A stretch of 21,993 bases of DNA from a bacterium (GTDB lineage: Bacteria > Verrucomicrobiota > Verrucomicrobiia > Limisphaerales > UBA8199), in NCBI GenBank assembly GCA_021784555.1, contig JAJYHY010000119.1:1-21993 (forward strand), written 5' to 3'. This document shows positions 5,185 to 18,862 of this stretch, piece after piece. The notes below the pieces were generated by a model, which searched no databases, was not told where the DNA came from, and was given only the letters and a program-made list of their open reading frames with translations. Numbering within the stretch: the first letter of the stretch is position 1; each line of letters begins with the position of its first letter. The position numbers were made by a program, and so were the translations under genes.

Positions 5185-5685
5185 ATGCAATCACACGAGA
5201 TCCTCCGGGAAGTCTTTCAGCAATGCAGCCCCAAGCAGGTGGCGGCCGAGATGGGCCTCTCCCTTTCGATGATCTATAAGTGGGCCGAGCCGCCTGACCC
5301 TCAGGCCGGCAGCGGCAGCACCAACCCGCTGGATCGCGTCGAGGCGCTCCTGCAATGCACCAACGACAAACGATTGGTGCAATGGATATGCGAGCGGGCG
5401 GGCGGCTTTTTCATCCTGAACCCGAAGATGAACCACGCCCACCCGGATTATCTCATCCCAGCCACAAACGAGATCGTGCAGGAGTTCGCCGATTTGCTGG
5501 CGGTGATTGCCAGCGCCGCGGCCGACAACCAGATCACGGAAAAAGAGGCCGAGCAAATCCGCCGCCGATGGGAGGAACTCAAATCGGTTACCGAGACTTT
5601 CGTTGCCTGTTCAGAACTGGGCAACTTCCGCGTCCTCAAAGAAAATCCCCCCGGCGTGAGCCGGGGAGCAACCCGCTCGGCATAG
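5185..5685 (+). CDS. Helix-turn-helix DNA-binding protein, phage CII/CP76-like regulator fold (hypothetical)
   Basis: MQSHEILREVFQQCSPKQVAAEMGLSLSMIYKWAEP is a classic HTH; ORF track start is 5131, but ATG at 5185 sits downstream of the repeat array. Confidence 0.55.
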   Translation: MQSHEILREVFQQCSPKQVAAEMGLSLSMIYKWAEPPDPQAGSGSTNPLDRVEALLQCTNDKRLVQWICERAGGFFILNPKMNHAHPDYLIPATNEIVQEFADLLAVIASAAADNQITEKEAEQIRRRWEELKSVTETFVACSELGNFRVLKENPPGVSRGATRSA

Positions 5686-5695
5686 GCCCAGGCGA

Positions 5696-6715
5696 TTAAG
5701 AACCCTGGCCGGCGTTGAGTTGTACCAGCCAAATATTGCGGTACCGCACTGGGTTGCCATGGTCCTGGAGCTGCAGCGGACCCGTGGCGGTGTTCTTCGG
5801 CTTCTTACCAGGTTCGTAGATGGCGGTCGCGCCCAGAATCGGGCTGTTGTCCTGAATCGTGATGCCATTGAACTTCACGGTGACGCGGGCCTTCTCCCGG
5901 ACCGAGCCGTCCGAGTTCATCCGCGGGGCGTGGAAGGTGATGTCGTAAGTCTGCCAATGCTCGGGAGGCAGGCTGGCGTTGACCAGCGGGCGCCTCTGGT
6001 TGTAGATGGCGCCGCAGTCGCCCATGGATGGCACCAAACCAAAGGAATCGAGCACCTGGATCTCATACATGCCGTTTAGAAACACACCGCTGTTAGCCCG
6101 TTCCTGGCCGAAACGATCCTCCCTCAGCGGCAACCAGAACTCCAGGTGCAACCGGATGTCGCCGAACCTTTGCTTGGTCGTGATCGAACCTTTACCGGGG
6201 ACACATTGCAGGCTGCCGTCGGGCAGGGGCTTCCACGGCCCGCCATTCCAGGCCGAGGTGTCGGGCGGCGTGCCGGGTGTAAAGGGCAGCAGCACCACGG
6301 CGCCGTCTGGCGGCGGGGCGCCTTCGGTGGGCGAAGTGCGCGTCGTTTTCCTCAACGTCAGGCTGACGCCGTAGTAGCCGGGGTCCGCCTGCAACCGGTC
6401 GCCGGAGATCGCGCCATGCCACATATTGGCGTTGGCCCGTCCGAACAGATTAACCCGCCTCCCTTGCCGCACGCCATAGATCACGAATTGCGCGGTTGGC
6501 TGGCCGGACACGAGCGGCTCAGCCTGGATTACCACGCGGTAATAGCCTGGCCCCTCCGGGATAACGTCGGCCGTAGCCTTGGTCGTATGCGACCTGTCGG
6601 CCTGGTAGGTGCCCTGATATTCGCCCATGAAAGGCTCCTGGGCGCGGACCGGTTCAAGCAGTGCCGTCAAACCGGCGGCAATGAATACGCACTTCAGCAG
6701 ATGTGACGTCATCAT
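5696..6715 (-). CDS. DUF1080 (PF06439, 3-keto-disaccharide hydrolase) domain protein with signal peptide
   Basis: N-terminal signal peptide; WKPLPDG...GDIRLHLEF...NSGVFLNGMYEIQVLDS...GAIYNQRRP...EHWQTYDITF...LQLQDHGNPVRYRNIWL matches the DUF1080 concanavalin-like fold signature. Confidence 0.85.
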   Translation of the reverse strand: MMTSHLLKCVFIAAGLTALLEPVRAQEPFMGEYQGTYQADRSHTTKATADVIPEGPGYYRVVIQAEPLVSGQPTAQFVIYGVRQGRRVNLFGRANANMWHGAISGDRLQADPGYYGVSLTLRKTTRTSPTEGAPPPDGAVVLLPFTPGTPPDTSAWNGGPWKPLPDGSLQCVPGKGSITTKQRFGDIRLHLEFWLPLREDRFGQERANSGVFLNGMYEIQVLDSFGLVPSMGDCGAIYNQRRPLVNASLPPEHWQTYDITFHAPRMNSDGSVREKARVTVKFNGITIQDNSPILGATAIYEPGKKPKNTATGPLQLQDHGNPVRYRNIWLVQLNAGQGS

Positions 6716-7836: not shown

Positions 7837-8862
7837 TCAGAACGGAACCAGGCAGCCCCGCTCCACCGATTCCTGGGCTTTCAAACACATCCGCACCGAC
7901 CACAGCCCGTCCTCGCCGGTGGCGGCGAGTTTTGCGTTTCCGGACACCGCTTCGGCCACCATGGCAATCTCGTCCGCCAGTTCATACACCTCGCCGGTAA
8001 TTTTCCTCAGCGGGACATCGGTGTGCTTTTCCCCATCGAAATACTTCAGCGAGAATGTGGGATGAAACGTCCGGTCCATCGCCCCGCTCCAACTGGCCCA
8101 GAGGGCGCCGCGCGTGCCAGTGACCTTGGCGACCTGGTGGTGTTCGAACCCGCTCAGCGTTTGCGAAATGACCGCATAAGCGTCCTTGGGGAAATTGACA
8201 ATCGCGCTGAAGTTGTCCTGCAGCTCCGGGTGATCGGGCCGGCGCGCGTTGGCTCGGGCGAAAATGCTCTCGGGCGCTCCCAAACCCGAGAAGTACCACC
8301 GGGCCAGGTCGAAGAAATGTATCGGCTCTTCGAGAATCCAGTTGCCAACCCGCCGGATGTCGTAGCGCCAGCCTTCGCCGCCCGTACGATAGGGATTGCG
8401 CCACAACTCGATGAGCGTGTATTGCGGTTGTCCGATGGCCCCGGCGTCGATCATCTCCTTGACCTTGCCCCAGAGCGAAGAGAGGCGAAATTCGTGGCCG
8501 ATGGCCAGCAGACGGCCCTGTTGCCGCGCGAGGCGGATAAGCTCTTCACAGTCGCTGACCGAAAGGGCCATCGGCTTTTCCAGGAGCAGGTGCTTGCCCG
8601 CGCGCAACACGTCCGCGCCAACCGGGAAATGCAGGTCGGTCGGCAGGACCACGTCCACCACCTCAATATCCGTCCGCGCCAGCAACTCACGGTAATCCGC
8701 CAGCACTGAGGCGTCCGGATGCAGGCGGTGGGACTCGGCCTGATTGGCTGGCGAGCGCACAGCGATCGCGGACAATTCAGCCTGGGCGCACTCGGCAATC
8801 GCGCGCGCGTGATGCCGGCCCCAAGCCCCAAAACCGATGACGCCAAAGCGAACCTTTTTCAT
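7837..8862 (-). CDS. Gfo/Idh/MocA-family NAD(P)-dependent oxidoreductase
   Basis: N-terminal Rossmann motif RFGVIGFGAWGRHHARA, EKPMALS catalytic region, 341 aa; family signature throughout. Confidence 0.9.
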   Translation of the reverse strand: MKKVRFGVIGFGAWGRHHARAIAECAQAELSAIAVRSPANQAESHRLHPDASVLADYRELLARTDIEVVDVVLPTDLHFPVGADVLRAGKHLLLEKPMALSVSDCEELIRLARQQGRLLAIGHEFRLSSLWGKVKEMIDAGAIGQPQYTLIELWRNPYRTGGEGWRYDIRRVGNWILEEPIHFFDLARWYFSGLGAPESIFARANARRPDHPELQDNFSAIVNFPKDAYAVISQTLSGFEHHQVAKVTGTRGALWASWSGAMDRTFHPTFSLKYFDGEKHTDVPLRKITGEVYELADEIAMVAEAVSGNAKLAATGEDGLWSVRMCLKAQESVERGCLVPF

Positions 8863-9253
8863 GATTGATGTGTGGCGGCCGGTCCCAAATCAAAACAACC
8901 GGCATGGTTACATGGGCAAGCGGGATGACGGAGTGCTGGAGTGTTGGGTCTTTCGTCACTCCACCGCTCCGTCCCGAGTGCCCCAATGTTCCGTGCTTCG
9001 GTTTAGTTCGATCGCAGGCCAATTGCAAGCATGGTTGCAAATAGGTCTGATCCTGGCATACGGCCCCTTTGTCCCGCGCTTTTCGCGTACTTTATCCTCG
9101 GCTCTTGGTCGGGAAGCAAAGGGACAAAATGCCCGATAAAGTATGAGATACCCGGCCCGATAAAGCGGGCCTGGGTCGAGATGAATCGCCACGGCCATTG
9201 ACAAAGTCCGCCCCCGCGAACAGCGCCACTTGGCCCCGAGAGCAGCTTGACTC

Positions 9254-9285
9254 GCATGAGCACACCTTGCAAGGTGTGCTCATGC
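9254..9285. promoter_or_regulatory. Perfect 32-bp palindrome GCATGAGCACACCTTGCAAGGTGTGCTCATGC overlapping the ATG of the ArsR-like gene; putative autoregulatory operator
   Basis: Verified self-reverse-complementary by hand; TTGACA/TTGACT -35-like hexamers at ~9200 and ~9249 just upstream; ATG at 9282 lies inside the palindrome. Confidence 0.5.
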
Positions 9286-9839
9286 AACCCGCCCGCCCCG
9301 CTTCAGCCAACCCTCTGGCGCACCGGCCGCGCCTTCGCCACCGCCTTGGGCTCTTCGCTTCGCCGGCGCAGCAACCCGGCCAAACCGTCGGTGCCCTCGC
9401 CCAGTGCGTGCAGGTGCCGCCCGCGCTCGCCAGCCAATATCTGCGTCGGCTCGAAGCGCGGGGATTGCTGAGCGCTGAGCGAGTCGGACGCTGGGTCAAG
9501 TACCGCCCCAGTGAGGCGCCGAACTCCTCAAACTCGAGCGGTTTGGCGGCGGCACTGGCGGCGTCGTTCCGAGGCGAAGCCGGCCCCGTGGAGACCCTCT
9601 TTAAGTTGGCCACCGCCTTCACCCATCCGCGGCGGATTGAACTCCTTGGCCTGCTGCACCGGCGGCCGCACTGAGTGGCCGAGTTGCGAGCGGTGACCAA
9701 AATGTCTTCTCAGGCGTTATCACGTCATCTGCGCAAGCTGGAGAGCCGTGGGTTCATTGCGCGAGCGGCGCAAGGGTATGCCGCGGTCGAGACGTCCACG
9801 GAGGTTGGGCGAGAGATGGCGCGGTTGGCGGTGCGGTAG
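9282..9839 (+). CDS. Tandem winged-HTH ArsR/SmtB-family-like regulator (two HTH units), interrupted by an in-frame TGA at 9672-9674 (possible pseudogene or readthrough)
   Basis: HTH1: LRHRLGLFASP...TVGALAQCVQVPPALASQYLRRLEARGLLSAERVGRWVKYRP. HTH2: FTHPRRIELLGLLHRRPH*VAELRAVTKMSSQALSRHLRKLESRGFIARAAQGYAAVE. Frame stays open through TGA to TAG at 9837-9839 (186 codons); copy 1 has GGA (Gly) one codon from the aligned TGA position. Confidence 0.55.
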
Positions 9840-9845
9840 CCGGGA

Positions 9846-9881
9846 GGGTTTGAGCACACCTTGCAAGGTGTGCTCAAACCC
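9846..9881. promoter_or_regulatory. Perfect 36-bp palindrome GGGTTTGAGCACACCTTGCAAGGTGTGCTCAAACCC immediately 3' of the ArsR-like gene; shares the 24-bp core with the upstream palindrome
   Basis: Hand-verified; core GAGCACACCTTGCAAGGTGTGCTC identical to 9258-9281; as RNA would form a ~16-bp hairpin; a TTTT tract follows 7 nt downstream. Confidence 0.5.
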
Positions 9882-10082
9882 GTTTTGGCTCTGGAGACCC
9901 CAGTTGCCCTAAAATATCCAAACTCCAGCGGAGGTCGCGCGGCGACGACCCTGCCCCATTGAGCTGCTGAACGGGTTACGTCGGCGACGCAGGTTCGGCG
10001 ACCAAATGCCACTAACATTTGGCCACGTGAGTCATTGCGAGGACCGGGTATGCCTGTGTGCCGGAGGCACCTTCGAGAATAG

Positions 10083-10102
10083 CCCAACGTCTTGACGTTG
10101 GG
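10083..10102. promoter_or_regulatory. Perfect 20-bp palindrome CCCAACGTC-TT-GACGTTGGG upstream of the beta-propeller/NagB operon
   Basis: Hand-verified inverted repeat; lies ~160-200 bp upstream of the 10258/10282 start. Confidence 0.35.
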
Positions 10103-10257
10103 TGGGCGCACGGAATGGACCAAGTCCAGACAGGGACGGCCGAAGCCCTGACCAAGACCTCTGCTCACAGCCGCTTCAGCCGTCCCTAACGGGACTTATG
10201 GCTTTTCATCAGATGAATCGCCGCATAGTACCAGGCATGGTTTGACACGGCGCAAAA

Positions 10258-11283
10258 GTGCGGCGTACTCTCACACGGCTAATGAACTTAACTACTGACG
10301 CGGTTTCGGAAGCATTTGCCCGAAGTGAGACCCTTCGGCAACCGGTCGGCGCGGGGCCTGGATATTGGGCGGGCGCGCCGGGGGCTTTCTACGAGGAAAG
10401 CGAGCGCGCGTGGTATCTTACCTACCGGATTCGGCGTCCACGCGGTGTCGCGCCGGACCGGGGCGGGGAGGCGCGAATCGCGCGCTCAACCGATTTGAGG
10501 ATTTGGGAGGATATTTGGTCGGTTACGAAGGACAAGTTTGGCACGGCCTCCATCGAGCGTTGCGCCCTCCGTCGCGGGCCTGATGACCAATGGCGCTACT
10601 TTGTGAGCTATGTCGATCCGGCCGACGGGCGTTGGTGCGTGTCGGTTCTCAGGGCGGCGGAGGTACGGAGGCTCGATGCGGCGCGAGCAACACCGGTCTT
10701 CAAAGCGGCGCCGCTCGGATTGGAAGGCGTCAAGGACCCTTGGATTCTTGAACACCAGGGGAGCCTTTACATGTTCCTCAGTGTCGCCTTGCCCACTTCC
10801 CAAACCACCGCTCAGTCCCACAGCACCTTGGACATCTTTAATACTGGCGAATGTGTCTCGGCCACGGGCTTGGCCACCTCTGGAGATCTGGACGAGTGGC
10901 ATTGGCAAGGAATCGTCTTCAAGCCGGAGGCGAGCGGCTGGGACCGCTATTGCCGTCGCATCGACAGCGTCCTTCCGGAGCAGGGGCAGTTCCTTGCCTT
11001 TTACGACGGGAGCGCCAGCCACGCTGAGAACTACGAAGAAAAGACCGGGCTGGCGGTCTCCGCGGATTTGCGTCAATGGCACACCCTTGCCCCAGACACT
11101 CCGAAGTTCACCAGCAAGGACGGTTCCGGCTGCCTGCGCTACGTGGAGGCGCAAGTTCGGGAGGGTCACGCGCACCTGTTCTTTGAAGTCGCCCGCCCTG
11201 ACGGCGCGCACGAACTGCGCCTGGCTACGCTGCCCGTGAGTTTGCCGGAGGCACGAAAAGCGGGCGAGACCGCCCCAACCTGA
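10258..11283 (+). CDS. 5-bladed beta-propeller glycosidase/phosphorylase-like protein (GH43/GH32/GH130 superfamily-like), hypothetical
   Basis: 341 aa ORF (GTG at 10258; first ATG 10282); repeated WxxxG/DG-rich blade-like segments (DPWILEHQGSLYMF, GLAVSADLRQWH); stop 1 nt before the next gene's ATG. Confidence 0.65.
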   Translation: MRRTLTRLMNLTTDAVSEAFARSETLRQPVGAGPGYWAGAPGAFYEESERAWYLTYRIRRPRGVAPDRGGEARIARSTDLRIWEDIWSVTKDKFGTASIERCALRRGPDDQWRYFVSYVDPADGRWCVSVLRAAEVRRLDAARATPVFKAAPLGLEGVKDPWILEHQGSLYMFLSVALPTSQTTAQSHSTLDIFNTGECVSATGLATSGDLDEWHWQGIVFKPEASGWDRYCRRIDSVLPEQGQFLAFYDGSASHAENYEEKTGLAVSADLRQWHTLAPDTPKFTSKDGSGCLRYVEAQVREGHAHLFFEVARPDGAHELRLATLPVSLPEARKAGETAPT

Positions 11284-11284
11284 C

Positions 11285-12127
11285 ATGTTCCCTCCCTACC
11301 TCGCTATCCCTGCCGCTGAGCTTGGCAAAGGCACGCCGGTAAAGGTCCGCATTGTTGGCGACATGCCATCGCTGGGCCGCGACCTGGCGGATGTCCTCAA
11401 GCAGGAAATCGTAACCGCCAACCGGGAGGGACGCGGCGGCACTTTCATCATTCCGATCGGGCCGGTCGATCAGTATCCCCTCCTGGCGCAAGAGTTGAAC
11501 GAGGAGAAAATCTCCTGCCGTGACGTGGTTTTTATTGGCATGGATGAGTACTTGGATGAGCGCGGCGCCTGGCTGCCGGAGAATCACCCGCTCAGCTTCC
11601 GTGGCCACCTGAACCGGATGTTTTACAGCGTGCTGGAGCCGGCGCTGGCGCCTCCGCCGGAGCACCGAATCTTTCCCGACCCGCATTCGCTCTCCACACT
11701 CCCGAAGCTCATCGCCGAGCGGGGCGGCGTCGATGCTTGTTTCGGCGGCATCGGCATAACCGGTCATCTCGCGTTCAATGAACCGCCGGAGTCAGGTGAC
11801 AAGATGGTGTCGCTGGAGTCCTTTGCGGCGCGGCAAACGCGCGTCCTGGCGCTGAGCCGTGAAACCCGCACTATCAACTCCGTGACCGTCGGCGGGGAGA
11901 TCGCCATTATCCCACAACTCGCCGTTACCGTTGGCATGAAGGAAATTCTGGGGGCCCGGCGCCTGCGCCTCTATTGCAACCGCCCATGGCAAAGCGCCGT
12001 GGTGCGGCGCGCCCTGCACGGTCCCATTAGTCCAGCCTGTCCCGCCTCGCTCATCCGTACGCACGCGGACGCCGTGCTGACTGTGGCCGACTATGTCGCT
12101 GCGCCGCCGGACATCAGGTTGCGATAG
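11285..12127 (+). CDS. Glucosamine-6-phosphate deaminase/isomerase (NagB)-family protein
   Basis: VVFIGMDEY...GGIGITGHLAFNEP matches the NagB/6-phosphogluconolactonase family core (MDEY and GHIAFNEP motifs). Confidence 0.8.
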   Translation: MFPPYLAIPAAELGKGTPVKVRIVGDMPSLGRDLADVLKQEIVTANREGRGGTFIIPIGPVDQYPLLAQELNEEKISCRDVVFIGMDEYLDERGAWLPENHPLSFRGHLNRMFYSVLEPALAPPPEHRIFPDPHSLSTLPKLIAERGGVDACFGGIGITGHLAFNEPPESGDKMVSLESFAARQTRVLALSRETRTINSVTVGGEIAIIPQLAVTVGMKEILGARRLRLYCNRPWQSAVVRRALHGPISPACPASLIRTHADAVLTVADYVAAPPDIRLR

Positions 12128-12278
12128 GCCATGACGTGAAGGGCATGAAGGCCAAAATGTCTTTGTCACGGTGGTCGCCGAGGCGTAAGCTTTTGACATG
12201 AGCGCAACAGTGGAAACACCTGCCGCTGATTTGGGACAGATAATAGTGCGCACTCCGGGGGTTCTGCAAGCGCAAGCC

Positions 12279-13109
12279 TTAAGATTTACTGAGGTCGCGC
12301 AGGAACGCCCACATGGCCTTGAGGTTGCGCGTAGGATAGCGGGCGGTGAAACGCTTGAGCGCGAAGGGCGAGGCGCCCGGCGGGTTTATCCCGGCCGCCG
12401 TCGTACAGGCGCTACGGTAACCGGCCTCGGCAACCAGGTCGCTTACGCGCTGATCCCAGTCGCCATAAGGGTAGCAAAAATGCTCGACCGGAAAGCCGAA
12501 CTTATCCTCAAGGGCCTTCTTGCTCGCGACAATCTCCTCCCGGGCCGCGTCCTCGGAAAGGCGGGTCAGCCAGGGATGGGTTCGAGTGTGGGAGCCGATC
12601 TGCTGTCCAGCAGCCAACCACTCGCGTACCCGGACCTCATCCATGAGGGGCTGGGACACGTCTCCGACCCGTTGCTGCCAGAGATTGGTCTTGCCAAGAA
12701 GGTCTGAGACCAGGAACTGGATGCCGAAGAAATGGTGCTGCGTGAGCACCGGCAAAGCGTGTTCAAATACATCGCGGAATCCATCGTCGAACGTGAGAAA
12801 GACGCTAGGATTGGCATCAGCGGAGCGGGTAAAGATGCTGTCCAGGGGAGGAGCTAAAAAACCGGCGCCCGCCAGTTCCGCCATTTGGGCTGCGAAGAGC
12901 TTTGGGTGGAGATAAAGTCCCTTTAGGCGCGGACGGCTTGGCCGCGGCCCCACATGATGATAAGCGAGAATCGGCCGGCCCCGTGTGAACACCTCACGAA
13001 AAGGAGCGAGCCGGCTATAGTAGCGAGGCAGAGGCGGAGCAGGCTTCAGTGTCCATCCAGGAGATGTCACCAACTCAGTCATGCCTGGACTGTGCCAGCG
13101 GCAGTGCAA
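12279..13109 (-). CDS. Polysaccharide deacetylase (NodB-homology, CE4) family protein
   Basis: LTFDDGFRDVFEHALP (TFDDG motif), conserved His-containing motifs (GSHTRTHPWL), C-terminal HFCYPYGDW; alternative start MTELV at 13082. Confidence 0.85.
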   Translation of the reverse strand: MHCRWHSPGMTELVTSPGWTLKPAPPLPRYYSRLAPFREVFTRGRPILAYHHVGPRPSRPRLKGLYLHPKLFAAQMAELAGAGFLAPPLDSIFTRSADANPSVFLTFDDGFRDVFEHALPVLTQHHFFGIQFLVSDLLGKTNLWQQRVGDVSQPLMDEVRVREWLAAGQQIGSHTRTHPWLTRLSEDAAREEIVASKKALEDKFGFPVEHFCYPYGDWDQRVSDLVAEAGYRSACTTAAGINPPGASPFALKRFTARYPTRNLKAMWAFLRDLSKS

Positions 13110-13278: not shown

Positions 13279-13489
13279 GTAGCCAACGGCACGCCCAGCG
13301 GCTATATAGAAGGCGTTCTTTGAAAGGCAAAGCAAACACAGCCGGGCGTCAGGGAACCCCGTGAAAATCGGGGACGGTTACGCCACTGTAACGGGCTACA
13401 AGCTCCCAAGGCCACTGATCTGTCGATCGGGAAGGCGGGAGCGAGGTTGAAGCCCGGAGTCAGGATATCGGTCTGGCCGTGCTCGTCAT
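13279..13489 (+). ncRNA. Cobalamin (adenosylcobalamin/B12) riboswitch
   Basis: Conserved core elements in order on the + strand: AGGGAA (13350), CCCCGTGAAAATCGGGG, ACGGTTACGCCACTGTAACGGG, B12 box GGCCACTG (13410), GGGAAGGC (13429), 3' AGTCAGGATATCGGTCTGGCC; matches the RF00174 consensus architecture. Confidence 0.8.
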
Positions 13490-13520
13490 GGCCCCGCTCT
13501 ACGGGGTCAGCTTCTCCGTT
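13490..13520 (+). terminator. Candidate expression-platform terminator hairpin (GGCCCCG-ctcta-CGGGGTC) followed by a weak U-rich tract
   Basis: 7-bp GC-rich stem immediately after the riboswitch 3' strand; then agcTTCTCCGTT. Confidence 0.3.
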
Positions 13521-13673
13521 AAAGAGAAGGATGAGGCCAGCCCCGGGCGCGGGTGCGCATGGGGACTTGTCGAATGACTGCCATTCGCCGATTTGCCGGC
13601 GCCGGAAGGCTGCTCCTTTCGGCCCGGCGCTGGTCTCTCAATCGTCAACCGCAGCAAGTATTGAAAGATCAGC

Positions 13674-14693
13674 ATGTTCAAAATCCAGTCGTCCACGCTG
13701 GCCCTGGCCGGCGCTGTACTCGTTTCCACGGTTGCCTCGGCCACTATTTATGCCGCGGGCGTTGACCTCGTTACCGAAGATTTCGCGCAACCACCCTCTA
13801 CTCGAGGCTGGCAGGTCTTTGGCGACACAAACCTGTTCCAATGGAACCAGGCGGGGCAGAACCTCGCCGTCACCTGGGATTCCTCCAAGCCCAATAGCTT
13901 CTTCTATCATCCCCTCGGCAGGATGTTGGACCGGAGCAATGATTTTACGCTGACGTTCGACTTGGTTCTCAATGACATCGCGATTGGAACGGACCCCGGC
14001 ATGCCGGGCACCTTCGAAATCGCCTTGGGTCTCATCAATCTCTCAAAGGCCACCAATACGGATTTCTTGCGTGGCACCGGCTTCAACTCCCCCGACCTGG
14101 CCGAATTCGATTACTTTCCTGATTCAGGCTACGGCGCCACCGTCGCCGCGACGCTCATTTCCGACACCAATGAATTCAACAGCGGCGGCTATGGGTTTCC
14201 GCTCGAGTTGACAACGAATGACCTCTTCCACGTACAGATGCATTTCGATGTCGCGACACAAAGCCTGACGACGACCATGACCCGGAATGGACAGCCGTTC
14301 GGCCCAATTCCTGACGCTTTTCTCGGAACCAACTTCAGCGACTTTCACGTGGATTGCCTGGCCATCAGCAGTTACTCCGATGCCGGGCAGGACCCCGCCT
14401 ACGCCGGTTCCATTCTCGCCCACGGCATCCTCGATAACCTGTCGTTGGGCGTGCCACTTCCGGCAGGGACTCTGACTGGAGGGTTCTCCAGCGGCGGGTT
14501 TGAGGTCCGGTTCGATAGCCTTACTAACTGGCTCTATACGCTTGAACGGACGAAGGATTTCTCGAGTTGGGACGATATTCCACCCGCGGTGAACGGGACT
14601 GGGGGCGAGTTGGAGTTGTCGGATACGAACGGGCCGGCTGGCGCCGCGTTCTATCGCGTCAAAGCCGCGCCGGGCGTGCAGCCTGGCTTGTGA
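13674..14693 (+). CDS. Secreted hypothetical protein with a C-terminal beta-sandwich-like domain ending ...FYRV; first gene downstream of the B12 riboswitch
   Basis: N-terminal signal peptide MFKIQSSTLALAGAVLVSTVASATIYA; 339 aa, Thr/Asn/Gly/Asp-rich; C-terminal ~80 aa pattern FEVRFDSLTNWLYTLERTKDFSSWDDI...GGELELSDTN...AAFYRV seen in many PVC surface proteins; no characterised domain recognised. Confidence 0.75.
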   Translation: MFKIQSSTLALAGAVLVSTVASATIYAAGVDLVTEDFAQPPSTRGWQVFGDTNLFQWNQAGQNLAVTWDSSKPNSFFYHPLGRMLDRSNDFTLTFDLVLNDIAIGTDPGMPGTFEIALGLINLSKATNTDFLRGTGFNSPDLAEFDYFPDSGYGATVAATLISDTNEFNSGGYGFPLELTTNDLFHVQMHFDVATQSLTTTMTRNGQPFGPIPDAFLGTNFSDFHVDCLAISSYSDAGQDPAYAGSILAHGILDNLSLGVPLPAGTLTGGFSSGGFEVRFDSLTNWLYTLERTKDFSSWDDIPPAVNGTGGELELSDTNGPAGAAFYRVKAAPGVQPGL

Positions 14694-14787: not shown

Positions 14788-15597
14788 ATGAATCAGAGCA
14801 AATCGCAAATCGCGGATCGTGAATGCGAGCGGCGCCCGTCCAGTCCACACCCGCCCCGCCCCGCGGCATTCACGCTGGTGGAGTTGCTGGTGGTGGTCGC
14901 GATGATCGGCCTTCTAGCGGCGATGCTTCTGCCGGCGCTGGCTCGGAGCAAGGCCTCGGCGCAACGCGTTAAGTGCCTCAGCAACCTGCGCCAACTGGGA
15001 CTGGCATCCCAGATGTATTGGGATGATAACCGCGGAGACTGTTTCCGTTACGGCGGCGCGGCGACGAATGGCGGACAGCTTTACTGGTTCGGATGGATCG
15101 GCCCCGGGCCTGAAGGCCAACGCGCCTTTGACCCCACGGCGGGCGCCCTCTACCCCTATTTGCGGGGACGGGGAGTGGAGGTTTGTCCCGCCTTCCAGTA
15201 CGACGCTCCGGATGTGAAACTGAAGGCGAGCGGGGCGACTTATGGCTACGGCTACAATCTTTATCTCTCGACGGCGCTTTCAAAGCCGGCGTTCAACATT
15301 GGTTGGCTGCGAGATCCCTGCGGCCGGGCGCTGCTGGCGGATGCGGCGCAAGTCAACACGTGGCAAGCGCCCGCTTCGCCGAGCCATCCGATGCTCGAGG
15401 AGTGGTATTATGTCGACAACAGCACCAACCAGCCAAACGTCCATTTCCGCCACCAACAAAAGGCGCAGGCGGTCTTCTGCGACGGCCACGCGGACGCGCG
15501 AGGATTCGTTCCGGGGTCAATCGACAGCCGTTTGCCCTCCGCCTGTGTCGGACGCCTCAGCCCCGAGATCCTGGCAGGCCGTGATGATGGCCGATGA
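14788..15597 (+). CDS. DUF1559 protein: prepilin-type N-terminal cleavage/methylation domain plus C-terminal H-X9-DG motif
   Basis: [47 protein letters not shown] is a type IV pilin-like N-terminus; C-terminal [13 protein letters not shown] fits H-X9-DG; family hugely expanded in Planctomycetes/Verrucomicrobia. ORF track start is 14710; ATG at 14788 (MNQSKSQ) is more likely. Confidence 0.85.
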
Positions 15598-15687: not shown

Positions 15688-16767
15688 ATGCAGACTAAAG
15701 CTCCGCTGGGCCGCCATTTTGCCAGTGATAATTACGCCGGGATTTGTCCCGAGGCCTTCGCCGCAATGACCCAGGCCAACCGGGGCCACGAGGTCAGCTA
15801 CGGCGAAGACACGTGGACGGCAAAGGCCGCGGACCTGATTCGGGAGGTGTTCGAGACCGAGTGCGAGGTGTTCTTTGTCTTCAACGGCACCTCGGCCAAC
15901 TCCCTCTCGTTGGCCTCCCTCTGTCAGTCCTACCACAGCATTCTCTGCCACGAGATAGCGCACGTGGAAGGTTCCGAATGCGGTGCGCCGGAGTTCTTTG
16001 CGAATGGGACCAAAGTGTTGCTCCTGCCGGGGGCCGATGGGAAGATTGACCACAAATCAATCGAGCGCGCCGTCAACCGGCGGGCGGACATCCACTTTCC
16101 CAAAGCGCGCGCCCTAAGCCTGACACAGGTGACCGAAGTCGGCACCGCCTATTCACTGGATGAATTGGGCGCCCTGGCCAATGCCGCCCGGCATTTCAAC
16201 CTGCGCATCCAGATGGACGGCGCGCGCTTTGCCAACGCGGTCGCTTCCCTGGGTGTGGCCCCCAAGCAGATCACCTGGCAAGCCGGAGTGGACGTGCTCT
16301 GCTTTGGCGGCAGCAAGAACGGGATTGCGCTGGGAGAAGCGGTGGTGTTTTTCAACCGCGAACTGGCCCAGGAGTTTGATTATCGCTGCAAGCAAGGCGG
16401 GCAACTCGCCTCCAAGATGCGTTTCCTCTCGGCCCCGTGGGTCGGAATGCTCCAGGACGGCGCCTGGCTCCGGCACGCCGCCCATTCCAACGCCATGGCC
16501 AAGCGCCTGGAAGCCGCCATCCGCCCTCTGCCGGGCATCCGGATTTCCTACCCGGTGCAGAGCAACGCGGTGTTCGCCAAAATCCCAGACGCGGTTGTGG
16601 GAGAAATGCACCGGCGGGGCTGGCGGTTCTACACGCGGATCGGCGGGTGGGAGGAGTCGCGGCTGATGTGCAGTTGGGACACGACACCGGAGGATGTCGA
16701 TGCCTTTGCCGCGGACCTCAGAGAGCTTTCGGTCCCTGACCAGGGCGTCGGCGCGCAAGCCAAGTAG
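15688..16767 (+). CDS. ltaE: Low-specificity L-threonine aldolase-like PLP-dependent enzyme (beta-eliminating lyase family)
   Basis: FASDNYAG...YGEDTWTAKAADLIREVFETECEVFFVFNGTSANSLSL and overall length (359 aa) match the LtaE/threonine aldolase family; gene symbol by homology only. Confidence 0.8.
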   Translation: MQTKAPLGRHFASDNYAGICPEAFAAMTQANRGHEVSYGEDTWTAKAADLIREVFETECEVFFVFNGTSANSLSLASLCQSYHSILCHEIAHVEGSECGAPEFFANGTKVLLLPGADGKIDHKSIERAVNRRADIHFPKARALSLTQVTEVGTAYSLDELGALANAARHFNLRIQMDGARFANAVASLGVAPKQITWQAGVDVLCFGGSKNGIALGEAVVFFNRELAQEFDYRCKQGGQLASKMRFLSAPWVGMLQDGAWLRHAAHSNAMAKRLEAAIRPLPGIRISYPVQSNAVFAKIPDAVVGEMHRRGWRFYTRIGGWEESRLMCSWDTTPEDVDAFAADLRELSVPDQGVGAQAK

Positions 16768-16942: not shown

Positions 16943-18490
16943 TCAGGGAGAACGAGCGGTTGTGGACTTAATCCTGGTGAGTTGTTGAGTTTCCGCGTCC
17001 ACCATGCGGGCCGGCAACTCGGGGCGGCACGTGAGCGTGCGTCGCTGGAACGGGCTGGCGAGCAATTTGAACATGTCACTCCTCTTCATGTGCCTGCCAA
17101 AGGAGCGCAAGAGCTGGAGCGTCTTGAGCGGACGTTTTAACAGGCGCGCGGCGAATAGCAGAGCGTAGCCCTGCATGCGCAGGCGATTCACCTCGGCGCC
17201 CGACAAGGCGGTGGGATCAATGTCGGTGCATTTGAACCACTTGTACCAATCCCGTTCGTCGTCGATGATCTCCCGTCGAACGTATTCATCCCAAAGTGGG
17301 GTGCCGCGGTAAGCACACAGGCGATTAAAACCAAAGGTGTCCAAATGCGACCGTGCGGCGAAACGGAAGCTTTCCAGGATGTCATCGGCAGTTTCATCAG
17401 GACATCCAATGACAAAGAAGCCGTGAACGCGGGCAATGCCTTGCCGTTTAGCCTCGCTGACCGCGCGTTGGACCTGGGCGAGGGTCTGCCTCTTTTTGAG
17501 GCGGGTCAGGATTTTCTGCGTGCCGGCTTCCACCCCAAATGCGAGCGCATCGCAGTTGGCCTGGCGCATGAGACTCAGTTGGTCAACCGCAGTGGAATCC
17601 ACCCGCCCCTCGCAGCTCCAGTGAAACCGCAGTTTGCGTTCAATCATGCCGCGGCATATCGCGGTAATTCGCTCCCGGTTAATGAGAAAATGGTCGTCGG
17701 TGAGACAGATTGAACGATAGCCCAGGTCGTTCAACTGCTGCAGTTCGCCCAAGACGTGCTGCGCTGACCGGCTGCGCCACCGGCCTTCGGAAAGGGAAGG
17801 AATGTCGCAATACACGCAGGAGTAGGGACAACCTCTGGAGGTCTGAACCGTGCAGAACTGGTCTAGCGAAAGAACGGCCGGGACGTCCAGCGGCAAGGAC
17901 TCGATGTAATCAACCGGCAGACTGGAACGGTCCGGATAGGGAAAACGGTCCAGGTCCCTGAGCAGCGGACGCGGTGCGTTTTGAACTATCTCGTCTCCGT
18001 TTCGCCAGACCAAACCGGCTACCGCCCCGGGATCGTCGAGGTTGGCCAGGTAGTCCGGCAGCAACTCTTCACCTTCACCCACGCCGACACAATCGATTTG
18101 CGGGCAATCCTGGAGGATCCGGTCCGCGTTCACGGTGGCAAACGGCCCGCCAACGATGACCGGCGTTTTAGGCGCAACCTGCTTCAGGCTCGCCGCCATC
18201 TGCTTGGCCCCCGTGTAGGTGGTCGTGGACAGGAATGAAAGGCCGATGACATCGGGGCGCTCCCTTTGCGTCGCTTGAGCCAGGTGCTCCGATTTCATCC
18301 GCGGGTGGCAGGTATCGAAGAGGCGCACCTGGTGTCCATGCTGGCGAAGGACCGGAGCGAGCGTTTGAATCCCGAGCGGAGGGAATGCCGCGATCTTGGC
18401 GCGACCCCGTTCGCTGGGCAAACGGCCGCGCACCCTGGGAAGCACGCGGCTGAAATTGTCGTCAGCAACGTGAATCAGGAATACATTCAT
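16943..18490 (-). CDS. B12-binding-domain-containing radical SAM protein (class B radical SAM enzyme)
   Basis: N-terminal cobalamin-binding Rossmann-like region (IGLSFLSTTTYTGAKQMA...PVIVGGPFATV); radical SAM CxxxCxxC motif SRGCPYSCVYCDIP; good SD GAAAGG 8 nt before ATG at 18490 (track start 18544 is further upstream in frame). Confidence 0.9.
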   Translation of the reverse strand: MNVFLIHVADDNFSRVLPRVRGRLPSERGRAKIAAFPPLGIQTLAPVLRQHGHQVRLFDTCHPRMKSEHLAQATQRERPDVIGLSFLSTTTYTGAKQMAASLKQVAPKTPVIVGGPFATVNADRILQDCPQIDCVGVGEGEELLPDYLANLDDPGAVAGLVWRNGDEIVQNAPRPLLRDLDRFPYPDRSSLPVDYIESLPLDVPAVLSLDQFCTVQTSRGCPYSCVYCDIPSLSEGRWRSRSAQHVLGELQQLNDLGYRSICLTDDHFLINRERITAICRGMIERKLRFHWSCEGRVDSTAVDQLSLMRQANCDALAFGVEAGTQKILTRLKKRQTLAQVQRAVSEAKRQGIARVHGFFVIGCPDETADDILESFRFAARSHLDTFGFNRLCAYRGTPLWDEYVRREIIDDERDWYKWFKCTDIDPTALSGAEVNRLRMQGYALLFAARLLKRPLKTLQLLRSFGRHMKRSDMFKLLASPFQRRTLTCRPELPARMVDAETQQLTRIKSTTARSP

Positions 18491-18862
18491 AACTGCCTTT
18501 CGTGCCACCGGTCGAATCGAAACCAGCCACCCTGAGGTGAGCATTTCATATCACCATTCATCGTAGTTCAAGGACAAACCGACATTTCGGGGTCTTCCTT
18601 GTTTGCCTGGTCTCTGTGGGTGTCCTGGTTACACTTTGATCGCCGCTGGGATTGCGTAGGCATCCTACATGCGAGGTCAGTTGGTTCGTTCATGCAGGGA
18701 CGCGCTCGTTTTGAGCTTTAGACTGCGACACACCGCGGCCCGTGTCAACGCCTGATTCAACGACGAGGGCGGGCCGGGCGGAAGGCACGGCGCAGGCGCG
18801 ATGTGGCCGGTCCCCCACAGCCCGCCGAAAAGGGGGCAAGCCTCTGCTTGGCCCGAGCACCC

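Follow-up and report, generated by a model that had tools for sequence, protein, structure and literature searches.

Competition for vitamin B12 shapes microbial communities. Accessory proteins that capture the vitamin are, to our knowledge, known almost only from gut Bacteroides (BtuG, BtuH, BtuJ and BtuK). BtuG is a seven-bladed beta-propeller lipoprotein of the Bacteroides surface that is encoded beside btuB and caps BtuB; a negatively charged surface of BtuG2 is reported to attract cobalamin (PMC13616437). BtuH (PDB 7BIZ; H-domain of BtuG1, 8BLW) is a surface-anchored accessory in riboswitch-controlled loci, optional in that about 40% of Bacteroidetes loci have it, and BtuG1 is a fusion of BtuG with it (PMC8941943, PMC10404256). 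Its anchor is that of a lipoprotein with PKD stalk domains, and the contact residues in BtuH2 are Y510, W511, W577, H476, N399 and Q333. BtuJ, or DUF4465 (PF14717), is an augmented beta-jellyroll with a signal peptide that binds B12 through loops; Bacteroides BtuJ1 and BtuJ2 are encoded in riboswitch-controlled loci, and DUF4465 is also found in Verrucomicrobia and Planctomycetes, including Coraliomargarita D5EK51 and Haloferula proteins (PMC13398666).

The locus that we compare with these systems lies in the window, by which we mean the whole stretch of 21,993 nucleotides that was analysed (contig JAJYHY010000119.1, Verrucomicrobiota). A cobalamin riboswitch precedes the gene for a protein of 339 amino acids, here called T339, which is followed by the gene for a DUF1559 protein. 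Our main reading, to which we assign as a whole a probability of about 0.5, is that T339 would be exported and would form the constant part of an operon with which Verrucomicrobiota scavenge corrinoids (the vitamin B12 family). The features of the locus are as follows:

13327..13490, + strand: cobalamin riboswitch aptamer, Rfam RF00174 (cmscan 72.9 bits, E=1.6e-16, full model 1-189)
13491..13673, + strand: structured leader (expression platform) from aptamer to start codon (RNA fold; 3' end conserved across loci)
13630..13641, + strand: 5' arm CUGGUCUCUCAA of a conserved helix, nearly invariant in 63 loci with the leader motif
13661..13672, + strand: 3' arm UUGAAAGAUCAG, ending 1 nt before the AUG; presumed sequestered translation-initiation region
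13674..14693, + strand: T339 ORF, 339 aa, ATG to stop included (ORF analysis; ENA gene call)
13674..13757, + strand: signal peptide region, aa 1-28, probable cleavage after A-S-A23 (sequence features; pLDDT <50 for residues 1-27)
13758..14459, + strand: predicted L-type-lectin/ConA-like beta-jelly-roll domain, aa 29-262
14469..14672, + strand: predicted C-terminal beta-sandwich module, aa 266-333, ending in FYRV (seven AF2 strands; motif conserved; module recurs elsewhere)
14788..15597, + strand: protein of 269 aa with a prepilin-type N-terminal helix and DUF1559/H-X9-DG (Pfam N_methyl, DUF1559; NCBIfam GspG/PilA N-terminus, HX9DG)

The score of the window aptamer compares with a gathering score of 31.5 for RF00174. 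The T339 start codon is 184 nt 3' of the aptamer and no other ORF lies between, so T339 is the first ORF after the riboswitch, as an earlier note on this DNA had stated; its further claim that T339 is the primary riboswitch target is supported within the window. The ORF is intact, and the same protein is given by an independent ENA gene call on the identical sequence. Homologues fall into over 1,900 clusters. Each bears the name 'hypothetical', and those that are identified come without exception from Verrucomicrobiota, the carriers being soil, peat and freshwater or lake members. An aptamer lies upstream of T339 homologues at 11 of 11 loci searched with Rfam, on the same strand at 75 of 76 testable related loci searched with an nhmmer profile, and also upstream of all four divergent tandem-domain variants of T339. 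The sole apparent exception (L047) is a partial gene at a contig start, encoding the BtuH-like protein X described below, and it lacks a riboswitch because its leader falls off the contig end. With 75/76 loci and 4/4 variants, the B12 link is far stronger than the window alone shows, and it is highly likely that T339 is a component of a riboswitch-repressed corrinoid-acquisition operon.

The leader suggests how such repression may be exerted. The RNA fold of 13485-13690 has a free energy of -93.4 kcal/mol (z=-4.28 vs shuffles), and no intrinsic-terminator-like site was found in the T339 leader. The arms CUGGUCUCUCAA and UUGAAAGAUCAG bracket a variable hairpin directly 5' of the AUG, and the helix that they form is present in the MFE fold of the window, where it covers the 12 nt before the AUG. 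RNAalifold predicts 10 pairs between the arms in 40 loci, with G.U to G-C changes in three loci and double changes at only one pair; covariation support is thin because the helix is almost invariant. In 63 leaders, whose first ORF is either T339 or X, A[A/G]GA[U/C]CAG is followed after 1-7 nt by the start codon, the two being nearly always AAGAUCAG and AUG. The motif is found in at least 120 metagenome stretches as well, in a census biased toward known loci by a search motif that was derived from them. In 7 of 113 metagenome stretches, at loci apart from T339, the same leader, which is specific to this lineage, stands upstream of BtuB-like receptors, one of which has TonB-B12 as its best family (332 bits); ORFs downstream of the receptor in L129 have no informative Pfam match. 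Pairing of the GAUCAG before the start codon with a CUGAUC of the aptamer P6 hairpin was considered and dropped, since the hairpin sequence is not conserved and the conserved partner is CUGGUCUCUCAA, further 3'. By analogy with cobalamin riboswitches in general, we assume that T339 expression is shut off when B12 is plentiful.

The protein appears to be made for export. Its N-terminus reads MFKIQSSTLALAGAVLVSTVASA up to the probable cleavage point, with T following, and combines a basic n-region with a hydrophobic core and an A-x-A site; residues 1-27 are disordered in the AlphaFold model, in which the fold starts at residue 29. The signal peptide proposed in the earlier note is thus borne out by sequence features and model, and residue counts confirm the Thr/Ser/Asn/Gly/Asp-rich composition noted there (G 10.6, T 9.4, S 8.0, D 8.0 and N 5.3%). 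The signal peptide contains no cysteine and has no lipobox, no membrane anchor was found by sequence or Pfam, and there is neither a PEP-CTERM profile match nor a PEP motif, hydrophobic helix or basic tail at the C-terminal end, which reads ...FYRVKAAPGVQPGL. A Sec signal peptide without lipobox, PEP-CTERM or membrane anchor would suit a released, hemophore-like extracellular scavenger of B12, for which the DUF1559 pseudopilin would serve as a type II secretion-like exporter of T339 and not in uptake. The strongly acidic character of T339 (D+E 36 vs K+R 13), which recalls the cobalamin-attracting negative surface of BtuG2 (PMC13616437), would suit it too, as would the GspG/PilA-type N-terminus of the partner. 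We nevertheless consider a released scavenger improbable, given how the partner gene varies between loci.

The partner, for which the ENA gene call gives the same start (ATG 14788), has an ortholog directly after T339 at about 70 of 80 loci (about 88%). With the DUF1559 prepilin-like proteins of Planctomycetes and Verrucomicrobia it shares an N-terminal methylation motif, the DUF1559 start and an H-X9-DG tail, and only its N-terminal helix matches solved pilins. We know of no function for the DUF1559/H-X9-DG family, and the papers that a literature search found on it do not mention cobalamin. Unlike the family at large, the partner of T339 is under riboswitch control, and in some cases a signal-less BtuF-like domain or a Cys-rich CWC domain is fused to it. 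At 12-14 loci the pseudopilin-like protein carries such a CWC or BtuF-like domain as a long in-frame cytoplasmic N-terminal extension, with no internal Met before the FTLIELL motif. Such an extension does not fit a processed pseudopilin of a secretion system, and it suggests a part in uptake or hand-over instead. Against a released scavenger also stand about nine T339 loci at which the pilin-like gene is missing altogether, and the lack of other T2SS genes in the operon. Extended operons carry Peripla_BP_2 (BtuF-like), CWC/DUF5522 and TonB-dependent receptor genes; a CWC gene is also found inside a Sulfurospirillum corrinoid biosynthesis cluster (PMC7755780). A TonB-dependent receptor is near T339 at only 1 of 85 genome and variant loci (L083), and the operon of the window has no gene for such a receptor or another transporter.

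The earlier note called the fold of T339 unknown, which structural search corrects. As modelled, T339 is an L-type-lectin/ConA-like jelly roll with a C-terminal Ig-like domain, the two-sheet topology of the jelly roll being superposable on legume lectins. Neither Pfam nor NCBIfam gives a match at E<=0.1, in line with the earlier statement that no Pfam family could be assigned, and phmmer and family-profile searches against PDB sequences found nothing. Structural search ranks carbohydrate-binding lectins and the lectin domains of surface adhesins from Gram-positive bacteria (Aap, SraP, YwfG, Pls) highest, and Aap has a similar order, a lectin domain and then an Ig-like domain. Identity to L-type lectins and these domains is only 10-15%, with no sequence-level relationship, and the genomic context of T339 is B12 and not adhesion. 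Within the family, loops are as conserved as strands (0.685 vs 0.682), a YSDAGQD loop has a conservation score of 0.92, the conserved loops lie at residues 127-141, 149-155, 205-214 and 234-246, and some variants carry the jelly roll duplicated in tandem.

The same fold is common to GH16 glucanases and PL7/PL14 lyases, and other neighbours in the window are sugar-related (a NagB-like gene, a polysaccharide deacetylase and a 3-keto-disaccharide hydrolase). T339 could on these grounds be a surface adhesin or glycan-active protein unrelated to corrinoid acquisition and expressed under B12 starvation, for example in a lifestyle switch. This is very improbable, since the sugar-related neighbours are not conserved across T339 loci, while the partners that are conserved (riboswitch, BtuH-like X, DUF1559 protein) are only B12-related or lack an assigned function, and since fusion of T339 to a BtuH-like domain would be hard to explain. 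A GH16 or lyase enzyme was rejected because the catalytic motif is incomplete: the GH16-like conserved strand has the residues E144-F-D146-Y-F-P149, some members have N in place of D146, and the third catalytic Glu of the GH16 E-x-D-x-x-E motif is missing. Homology to an enzyme family and a lack of B12 context were what the earlier note thought would tell against a corrinoid role; no enzyme family is matched by Pfam, NCBIfam, phmmer or PDB profile search, and B12-related context is pervasive.

The C-terminal module is not confined to the family. An alignment of 35 T339 sequences has W286, Y288 and W299 throughout, and L290, G308 and F326-Y327-R328-V329 in at least 90% of sequences or in all. 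A phmmer search of 1.84 billion representatives with the last 76 aa gave 281 matches at E<=1e-3, mostly family members. Large fn3, DUF11 or MBG proteins contain the module 4-11 times in tandem, and a GH3 enzyme and a giant RCC1/LamG/cadherin protein each carry one copy of it at the C-terminus. Its presence in tandem or single copies in unrelated multi-domain proteins marks it as a recurring module, and alignment and search uphold the earlier suggestion that the C-terminal motif recurs in other proteins. A sorting signal of the PEP-CTERM or T9SS type was rejected for this end of T339, there being no profile match and the module occurring also as internal tandem repeats.

Comparison with the Bacteroides proteins turns on a second protein. 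Protein X is related to the BtuH B12-binding domain in structure and, weakly, in sequence, and like BtuH it is a surface-anchored accessory of riboswitch-controlled loci, the anchor being a PEP-CTERM/exosortase-type tail in place of a lipoprotein with stalk domains. X is present at 31 of 81 loci, at 24 as a separate gene and at 7 fused to T339, and 38% of related loci have it as their first ORF behind the riboswitch; this parallels the pattern of BtuH and BtuG. At about 60% of loci T339 has no X in its operon, and no X gene was found in the window. Literature searches on BtuH with Verrucomicrobia and on riboswitches with PEP-CTERM found nothing relevant. The relation to the BtuH domain makes X a better-supported corrinoid binder than T339. 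The earlier note had proposed T339 as the best candidate; the B12-linked context on which it relied stands, and the ranking does not, because X is the better supported and comes first at 38% of loci.

T339 itself has no detectable likeness in sequence, and none among its top-ranked structural matches, to BtuG, BtuH, BtuJ, BtuK, BtuF or other known B12 binders. The suggestion in the earlier note of a BtuG- or BtuH-like protein fails on structural search, which shows no propeller and no BtuH match: 7BIZ and 8BLW are missing from the structural matches of T339, and it is X that has a domain of the BtuH type. T339 resembles BtuG in being exported, riboswitch-controlled and a constant accessory of a B12 locus; it differs in its predicted jelly-roll and Ig-like architecture, in the lack of a lipobox and in an operon without btuB. 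It resembles BtuJ as a beta-jelly-roll protein with a signal peptide, but it has no match to PF14717 at E<=0.1 and its family profile no PDB sequence match; BtuJ is absent among the top structural matches listed for T339, and a weak generic jelly-roll likeness is possible.

X also bears on a further explanation, in which T339 would be a lectin-type anchor or adaptor in the B12 operon. It would bind a glycan, either the envelope polysaccharide of its own cell or that of a B12 producer nearby, or else one of its protein partners (X, the DUF1559 protein, the receptor), and would thereby keep in position the actual corrinoid binders, which would be X, the DUF1559 domain or BtuB. A PEP-CTERM tail is found on 18 of about 24 stand-alone X proteins and on none of the fusions, so that X lacks its anchor precisely in the fusions with T339, as though T339 took over the attachment. 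An adaptor would also accord with best matches that are true lectins and adhesin lectin domains of similar lectin-plus-Ig-like layout, with a C-terminal module that is generic and found on many unrelated secreted proteins, and with X being already a credible binder. Yet at the many loci without X, the window among them, T339 would have nothing obvious to hold; the tandem jelly-roll variants recall the two binding sites of BtuG1 more than an anchor; and identity to lectins is low. We regard an adaptor as the most serious competitor, though a tentative one that falls well short of an even chance.

The main reading, a scavenging component, rests on T339 being very probably part of an undescribed B12-scavenging system, since the riboswitch lies upstream in related genomes and T339 often adjoins or is fused to the BtuH-like domain. 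Low B12 would open the leader, and T339 would be translated and exported. Its conserved loop face, in the periplasm or at the cell surface, would bind a corrinoid or receive one from X where X is present, and would pass it to a BtuB-like receptor and/or the membrane-anchored DUF1559 partner. T339 would then stand to X as BtuG stands to BtuH in Bacteroides, on a different fold. Direct corrinoid binding by T339 is plausible, with the odds about balanced, from strict co-regulation, fusion with the BtuH-like domain and analogy; a precedent is that beta-sandwich/jelly-roll scaffolds already bind B12 in BtuJ/DUF4465, proteins of Verrucomicrobia among them (PMC13398666). That T339 founds a new class of corrinoid binders on an L-type-lectin scaffold and forms, with the DUF1559 protein, a new envelope-spanning route of B12 import in Verrucomicrobia is a stronger claim, and we think it rather unlikely.

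The novelty lies in a family of more than 1,900 clusters, none of them annotated, whose members are linked to a B12 riboswitch in Verrucomicrobia that abound in soil, peat and lakes. The parts differ from those of Bacteroides: one protein has a predicted lectin fold, a BtuH-like domain is carried by a PEP-CTERM anchor, and a third protein, with DUF1559, is pseudopilin-like. Should T339 prove to bind corrinoids, the known B12 binders would gain a further fold, and B12 capture possibly a new scaffold. Were the DUF1559 partner to act in uptake, one of the largest uncharacterised families of Planctomycetes and Verrucomicrobia would gain its first functional handle.

Several other neighbours were considered as partners and set aside. 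Two genes of the window, one threonine-aldolase-like and one for a B12-binding radical SAM protein, recur only in the closest relative or nowhere. Malate dehydrogenase upstream and three opposite-strand genes downstream (glmM, a cdaA-like gene and folP) represent housekeeping synteny; antisense ORFs of these four neighbours gave rise to spurious clusters.

T339, the exported 339-residue protein, is encoded by an intact ORF, and the same protein is predicted on the ENA copy of the contig. The features of the region are:

13327-13490, forward strand: full-length cobalamin riboswitch aptamer (Rfam, 72.9 bits against a gathering score of 31.5)
13626-13676, forward: leader element, with the same motif as in 63 genome loci
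13630-13641 paired with 13661-13672, forward: conserved leader helix in the window RNA fold
13674-14693, forward: T339
14788-15597, forward: prepilin-like DUF1559/H-X9-DG protein, directly after T339
15688-16767, forward: PLP-dependent Beta_elim_lyase/threonine-aldolase-like gene, 91 nt after the DUF1559 gene
16943-18544, reverse: B12-binding-domain radical SAM enzyme (533 aa), convergent to the operon

The aptamer is the sole Rfam family detected across the whole window. T339 starts 184 nt 3' of it with no intervening feature, and is thus the first ORF after the riboswitch, as the earlier note had stated. The N-terminus, MFKIQSSTLALAGAVLVSTVASA followed by T, has the appearance of a Sec-type signal peptide without a lipobox, and residues 1-27 are unstructured in the AlphaFold model, both consistent with the signal peptide proposed in that note. 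The Thr/Ser/Asn/Gly/Asp-rich composition was borne out, the protein being strongly acidic as well, and the failure to assign a Pfam family was upheld by searches of Pfam, NCBIfam and PDB sequences, which gave no match. A second 339-aa ORF (5696-6715, reverse strand) has a 3-keto-disaccharide hydrolase (DUF1080) domain and did not match T339 when BLAST was run for the family; the equal length is a coincidence.

Relatives of T339 form at least 1,910 protein clusters (E <= 1e-3). Among those listed, none has a Pfam domain and every one with a name is "hypothetical"; where a source is identified, it belongs to the Verrucomicrobiota (Pedosphaera, Limisphaerales and others) and comes from soil, peat, a lake or groundwater. 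GTDB species genomes hold 298 loci encoding a relative, of which the best 80 were compared. In all 11 loci tested with Rfam, a cobalamin aptamer lies 5' of the gene on its own strand, and an nhmmer profile built from these aptamers detects one in 75 of the 76 loci with sufficient 5' sequence. The single exception (L047) lacks a detected aptamer because its contig begins within an upstream gene, X, so that the leader is off the contig. The aptamer is also present in four of four divergent variants with a tandem jelly roll (P0003, P0011, P0029 and P0055); no T339 homolog without a riboswitch was found among the testable loci and these variants. Some aptamers (L005:5443-5626, L046:4609-4830 and L013:4840-5042) have 40-90 nt insertions in the hairpin after the conserved GCCACUG box and are conserved outside it.

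The final 50-100 nt 5' of the start codon consist of CGCGCUGGUCUCUCAA, a variable hairpin, UUGAAAGAUCAG, 2-7 nt and the AUG. This element is almost invariant in sequence, and occurs in the 63 genome loci and in at least 120 metagenome stretches (L086-L205). RNAalifold on 40 loci joins the CGCGCUGGUCUCUCAA and UUGAAAGAUCAG blocks by 10 pairs, with weak covariation (the G.U pair is G-C in three loci, and one flanking pair has double changes). The window leader, conserved helix included, has a folding energy far lower than that of shuffled controls (z = -4.28), and the search for an intrinsic terminator in it was negative. The design is identical with T339 or X as first gene, which links the riboswitch to the point where translation of the first cistron begins. 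From known cobalamin riboswitches we infer, by analogy, ligand dependence and an OFF direction.

Scanned for exact matches to the leader pattern, metagenome contigs gave at least 120 stretches, 113 of them evaluable, in which the first ORF is T339-like (about 74), X or an X-T339 fusion (about 31), a TonB-dependent receptor (7) or other (1), a census biased by the derivation of the motif from T339 loci. The receptors (L129, reverse strand, about 10377-12285; L155, L126, L089, L114, L137 and L160) have 612-635 aa and match the TonB-B12 (BtuB) model best; a complete one of 635 aa matches it over its full length (332 bits, E = 5.8e-99, under the equivalog cut-off). A CWC gene follows the receptor gene of L155. 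Since such receptors lie behind the same leader, the lineage seems to have, at another locus, a BtuB-like outer-membrane receptor under this control. The leader is a putative lineage-specific riboswitch expression platform common to T339, X and BtuB-like receptors.

The earlier note had considered the fold unknown. AlphaFold2, given a 35-sequence alignment, predicts a confident all-beta structure (pLDDT 85.4, pTM 0.76), for which the top Foldseek matches are legume lectins and the L-type lectin domains of the Gram-positive adhesins Aap, SraP, YwfG and Pls (E about 1e-7). By this ranking the fold is a known, generic one, and T339 resembles L-type lectins at the level of fold only. The main rival reading, that T339 is a lectin-type anchor or adaptor holding the real binders, is in keeping with this fold, and we regard it as less likely than not; that T339 is an unrelated adhesin or enzyme is very improbable beside the riboswitch linkage. 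Mean column identity is about equal in loops (0.685) and strands (0.682), and the most conserved segment is the loop YSDAGQD (234-240; 0.92), as would be expected of a conserved, loop-built site for a ligand or partner. A GH16-type enzyme is unlikely, since the strand matching the GH16 catalytic strand by sequence pattern (E-F-D-Y-F-P) lacks the third acidic residue; T339 falls outside that family.

Residues 266-333 form a small sandwich of seven strands in the model, and the C-terminal pattern W..Y.L...W...G...FYRV is kept throughout the family. When the last 76 residues were compared with 1.84 billion representative proteins, this module turned up in unrelated proteins, in agreement with the recurrence noticed earlier. 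Large fn3, DUF11 and MBG proteins have 4-11 copies of it in tandem; a GH3 enzyme and an RCC1/LamG/cadherin giant each have one terminal copy.

Beyond synteny, conservation is confined to two neighbours, the DUF1559 protein and X. Of 81 loci, 24 have X as a separate gene between riboswitch and T339, and 7 more have it as an N-terminal fusion to T339 (38% adjoining or fused); the window has no X gene. Examples are:

L041:5187-5981 (forward), L006:5173-5982, L037:5056-5844: separate X
L048:1788-3452, L017:1063-2838: X as the N-terminal half

X has about 265 aa, a predicted signal peptide and a family of 1,152 clusters, for which the sole NCBI name is "PEP-CTERM sorting domain-containing protein"; of about 24 stand-alone copies 18 have a PEP-CTERM tail, which all the fusions lack. 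Sequence comparison alone matches the X profile to the H-domain region of BtuG1 (E = 1.4e-4), and X is related to the Bacteroides BtuH B12-binding domain in structure and, weakly, in sequence. This is the domain by which BtuH2 binds B12, with picomolar affinity. About 40% of Bacteroidetes B12 loci have BtuH as an optional accessory, and in BtuG1 the two proteins, BtuH and BtuG, are fused (PMC8941943, PMC10404256).

The DUF1559 protein is encoded directly 3' of T339 in about 70 of 80 loci and is absent in about 9. In 12-14 of the 80 its ORF starts with an in-frame, Cys-rich CWC domain, with no Met between that domain and the FTLIELL motif; in two of the tandem-variant loci (L084, L085) a signal-less BtuF-like Peripla_BP_2 domain replaces CWC before the FTLIELL helix. 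The fusions include:

L009:6990-7952, L033:4082-5071, L073:6888-7913, L079:5688-6764, L085:8858-10555, L084:8613-10316: CWC or BtuF-like domain fused to DUF1559

Either domain is an odd "leader" for a prepilin. The fusions suggest a bitopic inner-membrane protein, with the N-domain probably cytoplasmic and the DUF1559 domain periplasmic. A hemophore-like released scavenger with pseudopilin-assisted export, which the prepilin-like partner brings to mind, is improbable beside such a topology. A cysteine-rich CWC protein is listed within the Sulfurospirillum corrinoid biosynthesis cluster (PMC7755780).

Tandem variants (P0003, P0011, P0022, P0024, P0029, P0050 and P0055; L082-L085) have two lectin-like domains and one C-terminal module, and are located in longer operons. 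Their conserved loop has two versions, SYSDAGQDP...LAHG and the shorter SYQDDGFGD...[LF]A[HQ]G, which may represent two ligand specificities. In L082 the riboswitch is followed by a 303-aa ORF without a family match, the tandem T339, a Cys-rich CWC/DUF5522 protein, a BtuF/TroA-like Peripla_BP_2 protein without signal peptide, and DUF1559; directly after the last, an Rfam Acido-Lenti-1 small RNA match (9767-9812, forward) scores 42 bits against a gathering score of 37. L083 lies amid a NikR C-terminal domain gene, a NicO nickel/cobalt transporter and a TonB-dependent receptor (5203-5559, reverse; 8286-9395, reverse; 9433-11601, forward), which hints at a cobalt or nickel link. A Dph6-like ATP pyrophosphatase (PF01902) is encoded downstream of T339 in the riboswitch-controlled operons of L084 (7819-8421), L085 (7924-8661), L028 (2807-3535) and L070 (7812-8540); we know of no role for it in B12 metabolism.

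We conclude that T339 is very probably (about 0.85) a dedicated component of corrinoid acquisition; the odds that it binds corrinoid itself are about even. Directly evidenced are riboswitch, leader, export signal, fold, conserved loops and strict co-regulation, together with fusion or adjacency to a BtuH-like domain and association with BtuF-like, CWC and BtuB-like genes. At low B12 the operon would be translated and T339 exported; it would then bind corrinoid, or receive it from X, and hand it on to the receptor and/or the DUF1559 partner, T339 standing to X as BtuG to BtuH on another scaffold. The BtuG- or BtuH-like similarity that the earlier note proposed to look for was not found in T339 itself: unlike BtuG it has no propeller, lipobox or adjacent btuB, it does not belong with BtuH, and the lack of a PF14717 match sets it apart from BtuJ/DUF4465. 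Its nearest functional likeness is to the Bacteroides accessory B12-capture proteins. Riboswitch-controlled accessory corrinoid-acquisition proteins are a known kind, and what is new is the folds, anchors and partners; the literature searched yielded no link of DUF1559, PEP-CTERM proteins or BtuH-like domains to Verrucomicrobia B12. The family is large, strictly B12-linked and easily tested, and the operon offers a first handle on DUF1559.

The radical SAM enzyme is a B12 consumer beside putative scavenging genes; it was not found adjoining T339 in other loci, so the adjacency may be coincidence. The Beta_elim_lyase gene may be co-transcribed with the DUF1559 gene; L001, the closest relative (93% identity), is the one other locus that has it.
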